A stretch of 23,785 nt of DNA from Promethearchaeota archaeon. GTDB lineage: Archaea > Asgardarchaeota > Lokiarchaeia > Sigyniarchaeales > SOKP01. A model generated the notes under the pieces. That model did no database searches and was not told where the DNA came from. It saw only the letters and a list, made by a program, of their open reading frames with translations. Location: assembly GCA_048940645.1 (NCBI GenBank), contig JBHLOI010000050.1, positions 1-23,785 of the forward strand. Direction: 5' to 3'. A program made the position numbers and the translations under genes. Shown piece after piece: positions 8,756-18,889 of the stretch (within the stretch, counting starts at the first letter, position 1; each line of letters begins with the position of its first letter).

Positions 8756-10207
8756 TTAATTTTGAACATTTAAATTTTTTTTAGATTTCAAAATAAAACT
8801 CCTTAATTCTTTCAAAAAGACCTTATCCCCTTCTTTTATAATATTTTTATTACTGTCAATCCCCACAATTACTGATCCTTTTGTACCAAATGGACTAATT
8901 ATTTTTGTAAAAGGAGGCTCTAATTTTCGCCCTACAATTTTTTTAGCACCTATTAAACTATGTGCTAAACCACTACAAATTATACCTTGAGAATGTGATG
9001 GATTTTGAATAATCCCCTTTTTTATTTTATATTTATAAAATAATGGCGGATCTTGATATATTTTTGTTAGCTCTGCCGACCCTAATATCCTTAGAGTTGT
9101 TGGAGGTAAATCTAATCGACTTAATAACATGGTAGTTTTTTCTTTACCAATTAAGATTCTCTCATTTAACCATAATATAGCTTCAAAATTATTTAAATCA
9201 TTTTTTACACTCGTTTGAATTTTCTTTCCGTTAAAATCATAATAAGGGTATACAAAACCTGCTGTAGTAAACATTCCAATTGTTACATGGAGTTGAGTAC
9301 CAAAATGAGTTTCTGCTTTAAATAATTTGTTTTTATTTATTTTTACTTCAATTAAATCACAGTAATCAAAAGCATTTTTATTATCTGTTATATAACAACC
9401 CCTATAGATATTCTTTACATCCAATCCTTTAATATTAATCCCAATTCTATCACCCGCTTTTGCGATTTTTACTTCTTGATGAAAAATTTGAATCGATTTA
9501 ACTCTCCCTGAAATTCCTAAGGGCAATACATATATTTTTTGATTTAGTTCTAATTTTCCCCTTAATAATGTGCCAGTTACTATTGGTCCTCTGCCTTTTA
9601 TCGAAAAATGGTGATCTATGGGCATTTTGATACTCCCATTAACGTCTCTTTTTATTTCAAGTTCTTTAATTTTTTCTAGTATTCCTGCTTTTAATTTTTC
9701 AAATCCTATTTTTTCTTTGGCAGATACCGCAAATATAGGTATTTGGTCACCAAAAGATGTTGATTGAAAGAATTTTCTTGTTTTTTCCATTTCTAGCTTC
9801 ATATCACCTTTAAATAGGTCTATTTTGTTAAGTATAACTATGATATCTTTAATATTTAAAGCCTCTACCATTATTAAATGCTCACCGGTTTGAATTTGAG
9901 GTCCTTTATTAATGTCTATCACGATTATAGCGCAATCAATTATTTCTACTGAGGATGCACTTATTTTTATTAAATCTGCATGACCAGGGCCATCAACCAA
10001 TGATATTAAAAAATCATCCAATACAAAACTTGTAAATCCTAAATCGATAGTTATACCTCTTTGTTTACTTTGTGGATGAGCATCAATCCCAGCAGTCGAT
10101 ATTATTTCACTTAATACAGAAGCTATTGCAGTTTTACCACAATCAATGTGCCCAAACAATCCAATATGGATCGGAATTAATTTCTCAACGTCAATCATAA
10201 GAATCAC
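8756..10207 (-). CDS. selB: Selenocysteine-specific translation elongation factor SelB/EFSec (archaeal/eukaryotic type)
   Basis: G1 GHIDCGKT, DAHPQSKQRGITIDLGF, G3 DGPGH, G4 NKID, DHHFSIKGRGPIVTGT, GDRIG, domain IV FGTKG. No bacterial winged-helix extension. tRNA-Sec and SepSecS nearby. ATG start probably at 10198. Confidence 0.93.
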   Translation of the reverse strand: MILMIDVEKLIPIHIGLFGHIDCGKTAIASVLSEIISTAGIDAHPQSKQRGITIDLGFTSFVLDDFLISLVDGPGHADLIKISASSVEIIDCAIIVIDINKGPQIQTGEHLIMVEALNIKDIIVILNKIDLFKGDMKLEMEKTRKFFQSTSFGDQIPIFAVSAKEKIGFEKLKAGILEKIKELEIKRDVNGSIKMPIDHHFSIKGRGPIVTGTLLRGKLELNQKIYVLPLGISGRVKSIQIFHQEVKIAKAGDRIGINIKGLDVKNIYRGCYITDNKNAFDYCDLIEVKINKNKLFKAETHFGTQLHVTIGMFTTAGFVYPYYDFNGKKIQTSVKNDLNNFEAILWLNERILIGKEKTTMLLSRLDLPPTTLRILGSAELTKIYQDPPLFYKYKIKKGIIQNPSHSQGIICSGLAHSLIGAKKIVGRKLEPPFTKIISPFGTKGSVIVGIDSNKNIIKEGDKVFLKELRSFILKSKKNLNVQN

Positions 10208-14408: not shown

Positions 14409-14501
14409 GGCCCTTGACGGTTAGAGTGGTCTCTGACGCTGGGCTTCAAACCCAGTTATCCTGCGGAGGGATAGGGGTTCGATTCCCCTCGAGGGCCGCC
14501 A
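14409..14501 (+). tRNA. selC: tRNA-Sec (anticodon UCA), 9/4 fold, CCA encoded
   Basis: Folded by hand: 9-bp acceptor GGCCCTTGA/TCGAGGGCC, 7-bp D stem GTTAGAG/CTCTGAC with TGGT loop, anticodon stem GCTGGG/CCCAGT with loop CTTCAAA (TCA at 14446-14448), long variable arm TATCCT/GGGATA, 4-bp T stem GGGG/CCCC with TTCGATT, discriminator G, then CCA. Confidence 0.98.
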
Positions 14502-14526: not shown

Positions 14527-15894
14527 TTGATTGATTTTAATAAAATTATTGATTATTTTAAAAGCACACCTATTCCTCAAAATATGTTGAATAGAGGGCA
14601 ATTAGTATTAAACGAGTTTTTTAATCCTATTAAAGTTTTATTTGAGCAGAAAGCAGTTCCTAAGGAACCTTGGAGTGATGAGCAAATTAAATTTTTCTTA
14701 CAAACCCTTTCGAATATGGACACAGATAAAGATTTTAAGGCAGCAAGAGTAGGTGAAAGAGAAGCAAGAATAGCATCTAAAATACATTTAAAAACCTCAG
14801 CAGGATTCTGTCATGGTATAGGCAGAAGTGGTTTTTTAACGGCACCTCAACCAAAAGCTCCCGGAGGGTCTATCATGTATGAAGTAACTAATTACTTAGC
14901 GAGAAACTTTCTTAAAAAATTTGGATTACCTAATATAAAAAGTGCTATAGTTGCACCATTATGTACAGGAATGTCTTTAGCTTTATGCATTGGAGCACTT
15001 AGACCAGATTGGAATAATAAAGACTTAATTGACAAAAGAACTGTTCTTGTTCCTCAAATTGATCATAAATCTCTTATTAAGGGACTTGAACTAATGGGTG
15101 TAAAAAGAAAAACTATTGAAGGCAGGATATTTGGTGATGCAGTAAGGATTCCAGTTGAAGATATAAAATTAAGTATGGATAAAGATTGTTTTGCGGTTAT
15201 TTCAGTAACAAGCTTCTTCCCTCCTCGTGAGCATGATGACATCAAAGAGATTAGTAAATTTGCTAAAGAAAATGATTTGGTTCATATTGTCATTAATGCA
15301 TATGGGATTCAAAGTTCAGAATGGATGGATTTAATTCGTTCAGGAATTGATGCAGGAAGAATAGATGCAATCATACAATCAACTGATAAAAATGTGCTTT
15401 CTCCAGTTGGTGGTGCTATTATTGCTTCCCCAGATAAGGAAATAATAACTAAAATTAGTCAAGCGTATGCAGGACGTGCTTCCGCTACGCCTATAGTAAA
15501 TTTTTTGATCTCTATACTCTCTTTAGGTATTAAAGGGTATCAAAGATTAGTAAATACTCAACAAGAAAACAGAAAATTATTAGAAGAAAAGATGAATGAA
15601 GTTGCTAGCAATTTAAATGAGAGAATTTTAGATGTGTTTAACCCAGTAGCCGTAGCAATGTCTTTACAGAATTTGAAAAAAGAACATTTGTCATCTTTAG
15701 GAGGAGCTTTATATAATTTAAGAGTCACAGGACCTAGGGTTTATAATCCAGAAGAAAATGTTTTTGGAACGTGTTGTTCAAATTATTTAACTCCTTATAT
15801 AGTAATGAATGCCGCAATAGGCGCAACCTCTGAAGATATAGTCTTAGCAGTTGAAAGGTTTGAAAAAGCATATGCTCAAATTACTCAGAAGTAA
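14527..15894 (+). CDS. spcS: O-phosphoseryl-tRNA(Sec) selenium transferase (SepSecS)
   Basis: VGEREARIAS, HGIGRSG.LTAPQPKA.G, PLCTGMSL, IDHKS, NAYG, QSTDKN (PLP lysine), YAGRAS. Starts 25 nt after tRNA-Sec. Confidence 0.96.
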   Translation: MIDFNKIIDYFKSTPIPQNMLNRGQLVLNEFFNPIKVLFEQKAVPKEPWSDEQIKFFLQTLSNMDTDKDFKAARVGEREARIASKIHLKTSAGFCHGIGRSGFLTAPQPKAPGGSIMYEVTNYLARNFLKKFGLPNIKSAIVAPLCTGMSLALCIGALRPDWNNKDLIDKRTVLVPQIDHKSLIKGLELMGVKRKTIEGRIFGDAVRIPVEDIKLSMDKDCFAVISVTSFFPPREHDDIKEISKFAKENDLVHIVINAYGIQSSEWMDLIRSGIDAGRIDAIIQSTDKNVLSPVGGAIIASPDKEIITKISQAYAGRASATPIVNFLISILSLGIKGYQRLVNTQQENRKLLEEKMNEVASNLNERILDVFNPVAVAMSLQNLKKEHLSSLGGALYNLRVTGPRVYNPEENVFGTCCSNYLTPYIVMNAAIGATSEDIVLAVERFEKAYAQITQK

Positions 15895-15991: not shown

Positions 15992-16669
15992 ATGGAGAAT
16001 CGACTTTTAAATCAATTTAATAATGTAATTTCTACTCAATGGTCCTTCAAAGAAGTAGAAGAACCATATACACCATTAACACCAAGAGCACTATTTGAAT
16101 TAGCGTATCACACTTGTAATTCTGTAACAATGAGAAATATTTTTATTAAATTATCTCCAAGTGAGGAAAAAGGTGGATTCCAAGCAACTTTTTATTCAAA
16201 CAGTAAAAAATTCATCAATATAGAAGGATTAGACGATGTTATAAGATTGAGAAAATATTATCCAGAAGACTCTACAGGAGATAAACTTATAACCGAAATT
16301 CAACCACTTTTAAGTAAAAGAAAAACCGAGTTTATTAAAAAAGATAAGCAGATTCAGAGTCAAATTCTAAAAATTATATTAGTAGAGCGTAAATTAGATG
16401 AATGTGCGAATCTGGTGATGTTAAAAGAAATTAATAGAAAAATTTATTTTACGATTGGTGATGCTAGAGAAAGTGCCGCTGTAGTACCTATATTTATGGA
16501 AGCGGATGGCGCAAGTCTAGTACAACTCGCTTTGAACAAATGGATGACCACAGTCCAAAATTTGGATCAAGAAAAAATATTTCCTGAAAATCTAGTCTCT
16601 GGATTACTAAAAAATCTAATGCAGATAAAAAAATGGATTTTAAACTTAATTTCATTAAACTTAGATTAA
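15992..16669 (+). CDS. Hypothetical protein
   Basis: 225-aa ATG ORF with normal composition. No motif recognised. Confidence 0.75.
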   Translation: MENRLLNQFNNVISTQWSFKEVEEPYTPLTPRALFELAYHTCNSVTMRNIFIKLSPSEEKGGFQATFYSNSKKFINIEGLDDVIRLRKYYPEDSTGDKLITEIQPLLSKRKTEFIKKDKQIQSQILKIILVERKLDECANLVMLKEINRKIYFTIGDARESAAVVPIFMEADGASLVQLALNKWMTTVQNLDQEKIFPENLVSGLLKNLMQIKKWILNLISLNLD

Positions 16670-16732
16670 AGATTAATATCTATTAATTCAAAAGTATTAT
16701 ATAAACTATTTCTATTTTAATAACAAAAAGAG

Positions 16733-16884
16733 TGGTCCAGGGGGGATTTATTCTTTAGAGAAGATTTTTCTCTTCTATTGAACCCCCGATCTCGGGTTTT
16801 TACGTATACAGACAACTTTTATATTATTGTGCGTCTGTAGGGCCTTATAAGACCCGCGCTTTAACCAAGCTGAGCTACTGGACC
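16733..16884 (-). tRNA. tRNA-Ile (anticodon UAU) with two introns: 47 nt in the anticodon loop (~16845-16799) and 30 nt in the T-loop at 58/59 (16777-16748)
   Basis: Reverse complement, spliced: GGTCCAG TA GCTC AGCTTGGTTA AAGC G CGGGT CT TAT A^A ACCCG AGATC GGGGG TTCAA^AT CCCCC CTGGACC A (75 nt). Perfect acceptor, anticodon and T stems. Short variable loop. C4:G69, U12:A23 and A73 fit Ile. CCA not encoded. Confidence 0.88.
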
Positions 16885-16913: not shown

Positions 16914-16922
16914 TTTTATAAA
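16914..16922 (-). promoter_or_regulatory. Putative archaeal TATA box of the tRNA-Ile gene
   Basis: TTTATAAAA on the minus strand 30-38 nt upstream of tRNA G1. The AT-rich background lowers specificity. Confidence 0.45.
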
Positions 16923-17085: not shown

Positions 17086-17481
17086 ATGCTTACAGATTTA
17101 CTAAACTCCATTTATAAAAGAATTGCTCAATTAGGCCAAGCAATTCAAGGGCTAAAAACTTCTTTGGATGGATTAAATCAGAACATTGAAGAAAAAATAA
17201 CAAATTTAAATGAAAAATTAAAATCATTTTCAGAAGAAATCGACATAACTCAAACAAAACATATTGATGTTTTGAAAGAAATTGGAGAAAGTACTAAAGA
17301 TGAATTAAAAAAAATTCAGGAAGGTTTAGGGTTAGATGCTTTAAACACTTTAATTAAAAAACTAAATGAGTTTGAAAAATTATCTGGAGAGATATTAAAT
17401 CAAGATACTGTTAATTTATTGCTCTCTGAAGCTATAAGTTCTGTAAAGAATTTAAAGCAGAAACCTTCCGATAAATTATAA
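17086..17481 (+). CDS. All-helical coiled-coil protein, unknown function
   Basis: Long heptad pattern (IYKRIAQLGQAIQGLKTSLDGLNQNIEEKITNLNEKL). No TM. Confidence 0.8.
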   Translation: MLTDLLNSIYKRIAQLGQAIQGLKTSLDGLNQNIEEKITNLNEKLKSFSEEIDITQTKHIDVLKEIGESTKDELKKIQEGLGLDALNTLIKKLNEFEKLSGEILNQDTVNLLLSEAISSVKNLKQKPSDKL

Positions 17482-17492
17482 AAGGTGAAAAT

Positions 17493-17912
17493 ATGACAGA
17501 AAATTTATTAAATGAGATGATAAATAAAATAAATCAAATAACTTCTTCATTAGATGGTACTATTGCTCAGATTAATCAAATGAGTACAGCAATTCAAACA
17601 ATGTCTCAGAAATTCTCTGAAGAAACGATCTCTGTCAATGAAAATATTCGGCTAATTGTCGAAGTACTAAAGCAATTTAGAATGAAATCTAGCGAAAGTA
17701 TCCAAGAAATAGCTGATACTTTTAATGCAAAATTAAAAGAATTATTTGATAAAAAATCAATAGAAGCTATATCAGAAGAAGAAAAGAAAGCTATAGATAT
17801 AATTAGGAAAGCAGCTAAAACAGTTTCTAATAATCTCTATTATGCACAGCTTTTAAATATTATTCAATCAATTAGAGAAGAAACAAATAGAATAATGAGC
17901 TGTAAAGAATAA
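17493..17912 (+). CDS. All-helical coiled-coil protein, unknown function
   Basis: Heptads (LLNEMINKINQITSSLDGTIAQINQMSTAIQTM). AGGTGA SD. 11 nt from the previous gene. Confidence 0.8.
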   Translation: MTENLLNEMINKINQITSSLDGTIAQINQMSTAIQTMSQKFSEETISVNENIRLIVEVLKQFRMKSSESIQEIADTFNAKLKELFDKKSIEAISEEEKKAIDIIRKAAKTVSNNLYYAQLLNIIQSIREETNRIMSCKE

Positions 17913-17986
17913 TAAATTCTTTAAATTATTATAATTACCAATTATTATATTTTAGTAATATTCAATTTTATGGAGTTTAAACATCT

Positions 17987-18889
17987 ATGCCAATTGGCAG
18001 TTTTGTGATATTATTACCATTAGATGCAGATTACAAAATTTCTGGATATTATTTTAAAGAAGGTAAATCAAATTTTGAGGTAACAAGTGATCTCTTTCTT
18101 AGATTAAATCTAGATCATTCAAAAAACGAATATAATCTGTTAAAACTGAAAGATCTCCAAATTTTTTCATATCTTTATAGATTTAAAGGAAAATTAGCAC
18201 GAAAGGCTTCAGGGGCAATAATTGGATTATTATTGAATGAAAATGATAAACCAGAGAAGTTTCGTTCACCCCTTAAATTAGGTGCTGAAGCGATAGAAAT
18301 TATTGGTCTTAATTTATTAAACATGCCTCAGGATGATTTTAAATTAATATTAAAAGATATTTACTTTGAGCATTTTGAGCCATTAATTGACATCTTAAAA
18401 CCTGAAGCGCTAAAAGAAAGTATTATGTCAATTGCAAAATTTATGTTAAGTGGAGAAAAGAACGAAAGAAGAATTGCCACGGAACTTTTAAAACAAGTAG
18501 AAAATGGTGAACATGAAAAAATATCTGATTATTATATTTCAGCTGAAAATGCCCTAAAGTCATTAGACTACGATAAAGCTACAAAATTTTATAACAAGGC
18601 AGCAGAACTTGCAGAACAACTTTATATTATTGATATTGCTGAATCTTTAAATGAAAAAGCAAGTTTTTCAGGACAAATACCTGATTTATCTAAACAACGA
18701 GATAAAGCTGTACAAGATGCAAGAAATTACCTTCGTAATGAGAATTTTCATTCTGCCTACATTTCATACAAAAAAGCAAGTGAGTTATCTAAAAAGTTAG
18801 TAGAATTTGATAAAGAAGAAGAATATCGATTAAAAGCTAAAGCTTTAGAAGAATTTTATAAAGTAGATGAAGAATACAAAAAAAGATAA
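17987..18889 (+). CDS. Putative longin/uDENN-like N-domain + two C-terminal MIT/TPR-like helical repeats
   Basis: N-terminal beta-beta-alpha-beta-beta-beta-alpha pattern starting MPIGSFVILL. Repeats AENALKSLDYDKATKFYNKAAELAEQL..KA and ARNYLRNENFHSAYISYKKASELSKKL..KA. The CDS is solid; fold assignments are inferred. Confidence 0.55.
   Translation: MPIGSFVILLPLDADYKISGYYFKEGKSNFEVTSDLFLRLNLDHSKNEYNLLKLKDLQIFSYLYRFKGKLARKASGAIIGLLLNENDKPEKFRSPLKLGAEAIEIIGLNLLNMPQDDFKLILKDIYFEHFEPLIDILKPEALKESIMSIAKFMLSGEKNERRIATELLKQVENGEHEKISDYYISAENALKSLDYDKATKFYNKAAELAEQLYIIDIAESLNEKASFSGQIPDLSKQRDKAVQDARNYLRNENFHSAYISYKKASELSKKLVEFDKEEEYRLKAKALEEFYKVDEEYKKR

Follow-up and report, generated by a model that had tools for sequence, protein, structure and literature searches.

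The window, i.e., the whole stretch of 23,785 nucleotides that was analysed, carries on its minus strand an interrupted gene of an isoleucine tRNA with a UAU anticodon. Most probably (we put the probability at about 0.85), this is a functional tRNA-Ile3-type tRNA-Ile(UAU) that has two introns at bulge–helix–bulge (BHB) motifs and replaces tRNA-Ile2(CAU) together with TiaS in the whole order. AUA is the one sense codon that is served by a different chemistry in each domain: lysidine, agmatidine, and inosine/pseudouridine. The source genome is a Loki-type Asgard MAG with a length of 3.83 Mb in 126 contigs and a completeness of 89.6%.

The tRNA gene is located at positions 16884..16733 of the window (minus strand) and matches the Rfam family RF00005 with a score of 42.1 bits (E 5e-6), the gathering score of the family being 29. 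The match covers model positions 1–71, that is, all 71 of them, and includes two large insertions, one of 48 nt following CUUAUA in the anticodon loop and one of 32 nt in the T-loop. A score of 42 bits is low for a tRNA because of the two introns. The precursor is 152 nt in length, and removal of introns of 47 nt and 30 nt leaves 75 nt. The exon boundaries were taken from the Rfam alignment, from slices of the sequence, and from BLAST, in which the spliced sequence was matched at 100%. The parts of the gene and the elements flanking it are as follows:

16914..16922, minus strand: TATA-like element TTTATAAAA as read from the sequence, located 30–38 nt upstream of where the mature tRNA starts; likely an archaeal promoter.
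16845..16884, minus strand: exon 1, tRNA positions 1–38, comprising GGUCCAG (5' strand of the acceptor stem), the D-arm, CGGGU (5' strand of the anticodon stem), and the anticodon loop CUUAUAA (U34 A35 U36).
16798..16844, minus strand: intron 1, 47 nt at 38/39, parsed by hand and checked by a script.
16778..16797, minus strand: exon 2, positions 39–58, ACCCGAGAUCGGGGGUUCAA, comprising ACCCG (3' strand of the anticodon stem), AGAUC (variable loop), GGGGG (T-stem strand), and UUCAA (part of the T-loop).
16748..16777, minus strand: intron 2, 30 nt at 58/59 in the T-loop, its helix and hairpin being recovered in the minimum-energy fold.
16733..16747, minus strand: exon 3, positions 59–73, AUCCCCCCUGGACCA, with the T-loop part AU, the T-stem strand CCCCC, the acceptor 3' strand CUGGACC, and the discriminator A73; CCA is not encoded.
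16725..16729, minus strand: a run of five T, 4 nt past the discriminator base, read from the sequence and likely an oligo-T terminator.

An element similar to the TATA-like TTTATAAAA is also present in close orthologs. The spliced 75-nt sequence is typed by ARAGORN as tRNA-Ile(tat) and folds into a faultless class-I cloverleaf with a 7-bp acceptor stem, a 5-bp anticodon stem, a 5-bp T stem, the anticodon loop CUUAUAA, a variable loop of 5 nt (AGAUC), the T-loop UUCAAAU, and A73. The same cloverleaf is the minimum-energy fold of the spliced sequence. A score above the threshold and a perfect cloverleaf once spliced together place the gene in RF00005. ARAGORN without the intron mode missed the gene in the window and reported only the neighbouring tRNA-Sec; in the intron mode, it found 29–30 tRNAs in the whole genome, and this gene was not among them. 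The initial annotation had described a cloverleaf with the loop CT-TAT-AA, a short variable loop, and an intron in the anticodon loop, all of which are found by Rfam and by ARAGORN on the spliced form, and had named ARAGORN as a check, which recognizes the spliced sequence as tRNA-Ile(tat) and overlooks the unspliced gene. Its acceptor stem GGTCCAG/CTGGACC and anticodon arm are likewise present in the spliced gene as described. It gave the anticodon-loop intron alone, and the T-loop contains a second one.

On both strands of a BHB motif, the archaeal splicing endonuclease makes its cut at a distance of two bases 3' of the 4-bp helix. In intron 1, the central helix consists of U33–U36 (UUAU) paired with GUAA, which ends two bases short of the intron 3' end; the bulges are AA|G and AA|A, and cutting by this rule leaves a loop of exactly 7 nt on the 5-bp stem. 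The inner hairpin is ACAGAC/GUCUGU. Intron 2 has a BHB-like helix of G53–C56 (GUUC) with GAAU, the bulges AA|U and AA|A, and the inner hairpin AGAGAA/UUCUCU, and its removal restores a T-loop of 7 nt. A 4-bp helix, two 3-nt bulges, and a canonical mature tRNA are found for both introns. The outer and inner helices are relaxed in both of them, and the motifs are not of the strict hBHBh' type; in intron 1, there is no tight h' helix by the 5' bulge, and a 2 × 3 loop lies on the side of the anticodon stem. With both BHB motifs enforced, the energy of the precursor fold is −44.4 kcal/mol, compared with −49.8 kcal/mol for the unconstrained minimum of the naked precursor, in which an alternative hairpin replaces the anticodon stem. 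The 5' GGCCC of intron 1 is complementary to the 5' strand of the anticodon stem plus C32 (GGGUC), and this pairing is incompatible with the central helix of the BHB motif. All orthologs seen carry a GRCC/GAC block in the corresponding position.

The identity of the anticodon depends on the register of the first splice. Because of the A-runs at the junction, CUUAUAA results whether exon 1 keeps 5, 6, or 7 bases of the loop, and with 4 or fewer of them the result is CUUAAAA, i.e., the anticodon UAA. The gene could then be a leucine tRNA: the A-run at the 3' end of intron 1 means that a cut past loop position 2, 3, or 4 produces exactly this loop. Every splice register was scored in 40 distinct orthologous genes from relatives. 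A 4/4 helix was present at 38/39 in 33/40 orthologs (UUAU with GUAA, AUAA, or GUAG, that is, RUAR) and at the canonical 37/38 in 4/40 (CUUA with UAGG or UGAG), which amounts to 37/40 in a UAU-keeping register; three of the 40 have a 4/4 helix in neither such register. The registers that give UAA have no 4/4 helix in any of the 40 orthologs and form at most three pairs. In the four genes with the 37/38 motif (L032, from the sister family, and L010, L014, and L026), the entire anticodon lies inside exon 1. Archaeal leucine tRNAs belong to class II and have a long arm, whereas the variable loop here is just 5 nt. A tRNA-Leu(UAA) was not located elsewhere in the genome by permissive anticodon-arm scans, whose output was mostly noise. 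Given the registers and the short variable loop, the leucine reading is highly improbable, and the gene is confirmed as a real tRNA-Ile with a UAU anticodon, as predicted from the BHB registers and the spliced fold. The UAU anticodon that had been proposed from the sequence at the outset thus stands, supported by the ARAGORN type and by the registers of the orthologs; the junction had been set at 37/38, and here the BHB motif shifts it to 38/39, with an identical mature sequence either way. As for the second intron, a same-genus ortholog without the T-loop intron (L003) reads GGGGGTTCAAATCCCCC, which matches the predicted T-loop UUCAAAU.

The anticodon-arm signature GCGCNGGTCTTATA was found in 105 of the 121 genomes of the order, nearly always once per genome: in 92/101 genomes of the own family (f1), in 10/14 of the sister family (f2), and in 37/39 of the high-quality genomes. 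The reversed control of this signature matches rarely. The orthologous genes are 122–215 nt in length owing to one to four introns. Introns of the D-loop, variable loop, and T-loop were gained or lost among them, and the anticodon-loop intron is present in 40/40. The anticodon stems are CGGGU/ACCCG, CAGGU/ACCUG or GCCUG, CUGGU/ACCAG, and CCGGU/GCCGG, and the acceptor stem occurs in at least eight paired, compensated variants among the 40 orthologs, the commonest being GGGCCAT/ATGGCCC. The search for orthologs required pairing, so the evidence lies in the variety of the stem sequences and not in the pairing itself. A73 is present in 40/40 orthologs, and tRNA-Ile(UAU) has A37, A38, and the class-I structure; these features are indirect indications of charging with isoleucine by IleRS. 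The acceptor stem of the gene under study had been considered eukaryote-like; with this many variants, it is not a conserved trait.

These data bear on another possibility, namely, that we are dealing with a pseudogene in decay or with a relic that merely resembles a tRNA, AUA being read by something else. Such a reading would fit the low Rfam score of 42 bits, the failure of ARAGORN to report the gene, and the preference of the naked precursor for a non-tRNA hairpin. The score is accounted for by the two introns, and a single-copy gene kept in 105/121 genomes, with stems fully paired despite sequence change, does not look like a relic or a product of chance; besides, no other reader of AUA and no TiaS were found, while ATA makes up 3.6% of the codons. 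A relic thus appears very improbable, and the preferred reading is that of a functional tRNA-Ile(UAU).

General UAU patterns applied to the phylum sample have a sensitivity of about one third because of D-arm introns, and they recovered the gene in f1 and f2 only. A loose pattern applied to five TiaS-less genomes of other families gave mostly noise and one true UAU tRNA, in f21 (G053), with a canonical 37/38 BHB motif. In an Odin-like closed genome (G001), which has 33 Rfam tRNA matches, the only UAU call of ARAGORN, a "tRNA-Ile(tat)" with an 89-nt body (L163, G001:C1:634661-634802), was rejected as false: its CTTATA is part of a hairpin in an intron (CUUAUA/UAUAAG), and the arm, GCAGC-AUGGUAA-GUUGU, is suggestive of a tRNA-Thr(GGU). 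This is an example of how a false UAU call can arise in intron-rich tRNA genes. Another UAU tRNA, intron-less and with a different sequence (GCTCAACGGTTAGAGCGTTCGCCTTATAAGCGAG...), was observed in a same-genus genome on the minus strand at about position 1500 of the locus L108 (G104:C80:11045-14075), where the next gene is that of a compact tRNA whose anticodon loop has GTC. This genome also keeps the normal interrupted tRNA-Ile(UAU) gene. Unlike the interrupted genes of the host, the tRNAs of this array are compact, and it may originate from a virus or mobile element.

The two parts of the agmatidine route were searched for separately. The TiaS domains TiaS_FLD and TiaS_TCKD (PF08489, PF22641) gave no match in the source genome, while four archaeal control genomes responded. 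In the sample of the Asgard phylum, TiaS_TCKD was found in 81/151 genomes; it was absent from f1 (0/25), f2 (0/2), f3 (0/4), f12 (0/19), f13 (0/3), f16 (0/5), and f21 (0/3). In the larger set of the own and sister families, TiaS was found in 0/101 genomes of f1 and 0/14 of f2, i.e., in 0/115, many of these genomes being 98–100% complete. Within the order, one genome out of 121 (G173, 66% complete) gave a partial TiaS_TCKD match, restricted to profile positions 2–60 and located in a 387-aa frame. Candidatus Heimdallarchaeum aukensis does have TiaS.

The distribution of CAU tRNAs was determined with a stem-aware scan; the initial anticodon-arm scans for CAU, UAU, and UAA were too permissive and yielded mostly noise, and only the stricter one was used. 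CAU tRNAs with a matching 5' half were found in the TiaS-positive families f7 (23/26), f5 (10/13), and f20 (6/7), and no true match was found in the TiaS-less f1, f2, f3, f12, f16, and f21. In the source genome, the scan revealed only the elongator Met (C36) and initiator (C43) CAU tRNAs; given the completeness of 89.6% and the inability of the scan to detect an anticodon arm that an intron interrupts 5' of position 37, this count leaves some room for a third one. A BLAST search of the same genome, with queries that included two 74-nt tRNAs of relatives, revealed neither an Ile2-like (Asgard GGGCCCG-type CAU) relative nor a second UAU copy. The Ile(GAU) gene is located at C117:44895-44970.

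A separate observation concerns the CAU tRNAs L075–L081 of the Heimdallarchaeaceae type (f5). They have the anticodon arm CAAGA-CUCAUAA-UCUUG, a long intron, and an encoded CCA; their T-loop is AUCGAAA or AUCGAGU, with A at position 54, and the anticodon stem lacks the three G–C pairs of initiators. A54 is a hallmark of the eukaryotic initiator tRNA.

The UAU tRNA might merely supplement the agmatidine route, with TiaS and tRNA-Ile2(CAU) residing in the unassembled 10% of the genome or being too diverged or interrupted to be recognized. The completeness of 89.6%, the heavy interruption of the tRNA genes, of which only about 30 were detected, and the partial TiaS_TCKD match in G173 are in line with this, whereas the lack of any TiaS match in the 115 genomes of f1 and f2, with controls that respond, and the absence of the relevant CAU tRNAs in every TiaS-less family sampled argue against it; the match in G173 spans only a short part of the profile in a genome that is 66% complete. 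Supplementation is thus improbable. The initial annotation had left open whether the agmatidine system was replaced or supplemented and had proposed to look for tiaS and for a further CAU tRNA; with no match to either TiaS domain, none among the 115 genomes, and no Ile2-type CAU tRNA found, the former version is favoured and the latter is not. The sequence comparisons support the loss of the agmatidine route (TiaS and tRNA-Ile2(CAU)) in the order, with tRNA-Ile(UAU) in its place.

The codon concerned is in heavy use. Across 1871 long ORFs of the genome, ATA reaches 35.5 per 1000 codons, which is 34% of the Ile codons and twice the frequency of ATG; the impression from the window alone that ATA is common therefore holds genome-wide. 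Conceivably, AUA might have acquired another meaning, such as Met, which it has in many mitochondria, with the UAU tRNA charged accordingly. Nothing specific speaks for this apart from the fact that codon reassignments are known from the Ile/Met box. In SepSecS, 16 ATA columns were aligned with 22 orthologs and contained I in 229 cases, V in 63, L in 23, and M in 18 of the 350 aligned cells; the ATT columns give the same profile, and the ATG columns align with Met. Because the ATA columns behave like the ATT columns and unlike the ATG columns, AUA still means Ile, at least as judged from SepSecS, and a reassignment is hardly conceivable. Taken with the lack of other candidates in the genome, tRNA-Ile(UAU) appears to be the sole reader of AUA in this organism.

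With respect to SepSecS, the tRNA-Ile(UAU) gene is located about 0.8 kb downstream and on the opposite strand; many Promethearchaeota MAGs show the same linkage. SepSecS (14527-15894, plus strand) is part of a selenocysteine cluster in the window, which also contains aSelB (8756-10207, minus strand) and tRNA-Sec (14409-14497, plus strand; 62.1 bits in Rfam). The relatives of this SepSecS come from MAGs labelled Promethearchaeota/Promethearchaeia, i.e., Loki-type Asgard archaea. Four ORFs of 225, 131, 139, and 300 aa flank the tRNA gene (15992-16669 and 17086-18889, both on the plus strand). In a comparison with Pfam, three of them had no match at E 0.001 or below, and the 131-aa ORF had only sub-threshold ones.

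Intron 2 is homologous to the T-loop intron of a tRNA-Thr(CGU) gene on contig C7 of the same genome (G000:C7:17075-17127). Over 53 positions that take in the T-arm, the two agree at 45, and there is no difference between them in the 16 nt at the 3' end (CTTCTCTAAAGAATAA). This similarity, together with the lack of a T-loop intron in L003, points to recent copying of the intron, or of the T-arm with its intron, between the two tRNA genes.

From these data, we infer the following course for splicing, charging by IleRS, the role of sole reader, and the avoidance of AUG. The 152-nt precursor would be transcribed, and the splicing endonuclease would remove the two introns at the BHB motifs at 38/39 and 58/59. 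The mature 75-nt tRNA would then be charged by IleRS and would read AUA by U34–A pairing. In the organism and in the whole order, tRNA-Ile(UAU) would have taken over from tRNA-Ile2(CAU) and TiaS, so that it would bear all AUA codons, about 3.6% of codons. AUG would be avoided either by a restrictive U34 (unmodified, pseudouridine, or with another modification) or by an adaptation of the ribosome or IleRS, as in Mycoplasma mobile.

The need for a modification of U34 is plausible. In the source genome, the TruA/Pus1 family and TruD are represented by a single gene each, and an Elp3 gene, which is of no specific significance here, is also present; an extra Pus1-like paralog was not found, and nothing in this set of genes indicates that a Pus1-type enzyme was added. 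One might suppose that no Asgard tRNA-Ile(UAU) gene has lost the anticodon-loop intron because, as in yeast, the intron is needed for modification of U34 and/or U36 in the precursor, either in the form with UUAU paired to RUAR or in a conserved alternative hairpin, and that this modification blocks the reading of AUG. At present, this supposition seems doubtful. The universal retention of the intron and the pairing of the GRCC block with the anticodon stem are compatible with an intron-dependent step and do not prove it. If it were true, AUA decoding of the eukaryotic, intron-dependent kind would exist in Asgard archaea, and the mechanism might extend to all archaeal tRNA-Ile(UAU), given that the genes of Korarchaeum and ARMAN share this intron.

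A UAU tRNA in place of TiaS is already known in other archaea; notable here are the order-wide spread in Asgard archaea, the non-canonical 38/39 register, and the intron that is always retained and pairs with the anticodon. [quoted passage not shown] The present case resembles them in the encoded UAU anticodon and in the missing TiaS and tRNA-Ile2(CAU). It differs in that the trait is common to a whole Asgard order and not confined to single genomes, and in that there are two introns (one to four in relatives), the anticodon-loop one being mostly at 38/39. The Korarchaeum gene resembles a copy of its own Ile(GAU), whereas the gene described here is closer to Asgard CAU tRNAs: in pairwise identities among sampled archaeal sequences, the closest were the GGGCCCG-type CAU tRNAs of TiaS-positive Asgard genomes (75–79%), and the identity with the genome's own Ile(GAU) was 71%.

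The DPANN archaea ARMAN-2, -4, and -5 have tRNA-Ile(UAU) and have lost both tRNA-Ile(CAU) and TiaS (PMC3239211, Fujishima et al. 2011). The ARMAN-2 intron is 25 nt in length, is located at 37/38 in a strict hBHBh' motif, and is cleaved in vitro; ARMAN has a broad-specificity endonuclease and non-canonical introns elsewhere in its genomes (PMC3239211). The UAU anticodon, the loss of the CAU tRNA and TiaS, and a BHB intron beside the anticodon are shared with the present gene, whose intron is 47 nt in length and is predicted at 38/39 in a relaxed motif. The tRNA-Ile2(UAU) of Mycoplasma mobile has an anticodon with unmodified U34 and owes its specificity to an arginine of IleRS and a property of the ribosome (PMC3575796). 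There, too, UAU replaces a modified-cytidine route after the loss of the modifying enzyme; the bacterial gene has no intron, whereas the gene here is archaeal and has two.

The initial annotation had spoken of a eukaryote-like route to AUA decoding. The eukaryotic cytosolic tRNA-Ile(UAU) is read as pseudouridine–A–pseudouridine, positions 34 and 36 being modified by a Pus1-type enzyme. These anticodon pseudouridines are made on the intron-containing precursor (PMC6000648, PMC8879553). A functional parallel does exist: in both cases UAU reads AUA, and an anticodon-adjacent intron, kept here in all 40 orthologs, pairs with the anticodon. In contrast to eukaryotes, the partner tRNA here is Ile(GAU) and not AAU/IAU, i.e., there is no A34 for inosine; the introns lie at archaeal BHB motifs, and there is a single TruA-family gene. 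The many variants of the acceptor stem, the GAU partner, the position of Asgard CAU tRNAs as the nearest sampled sequences, and the presence of TiaS in Heimdallarchaeum give no support to a common descent with the eukaryotic genes. As Heimdallarchaeum keeps TiaS, the switch to UAU seems to have happened in parallel and not to be a direct trait of the eukaryotic ancestor.

Most tRNA genes of these organisms are interrupted (bioRxiv 10.64898/2026.10.13.758758), and the preprint on Asgard tRNA introns makes no mention of Ile, UAU, or TiaS; in the library searched, none of the papers found connects TiaS, agmatidine, or UAU with Asgard archaea. Since standard tRNA finders miss the gene, annotations of these organisms wrongly appear to be without an AUA decoder. 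Under the reading preferred here, that of a functional tRNA-Ile(UAU) that replaces the TiaS route, an order that is both large and well sampled, among the archaea nearest to eukaryotes, would have dropped agmatidine and would read a very common codon with a UAU tRNA whose anticodon always pairs with an intron in the precursor. Relatives of this organism can now be cultured, and the way in which U34 avoids AUG, as well as the role of the intron, is thereby open to direct testing.
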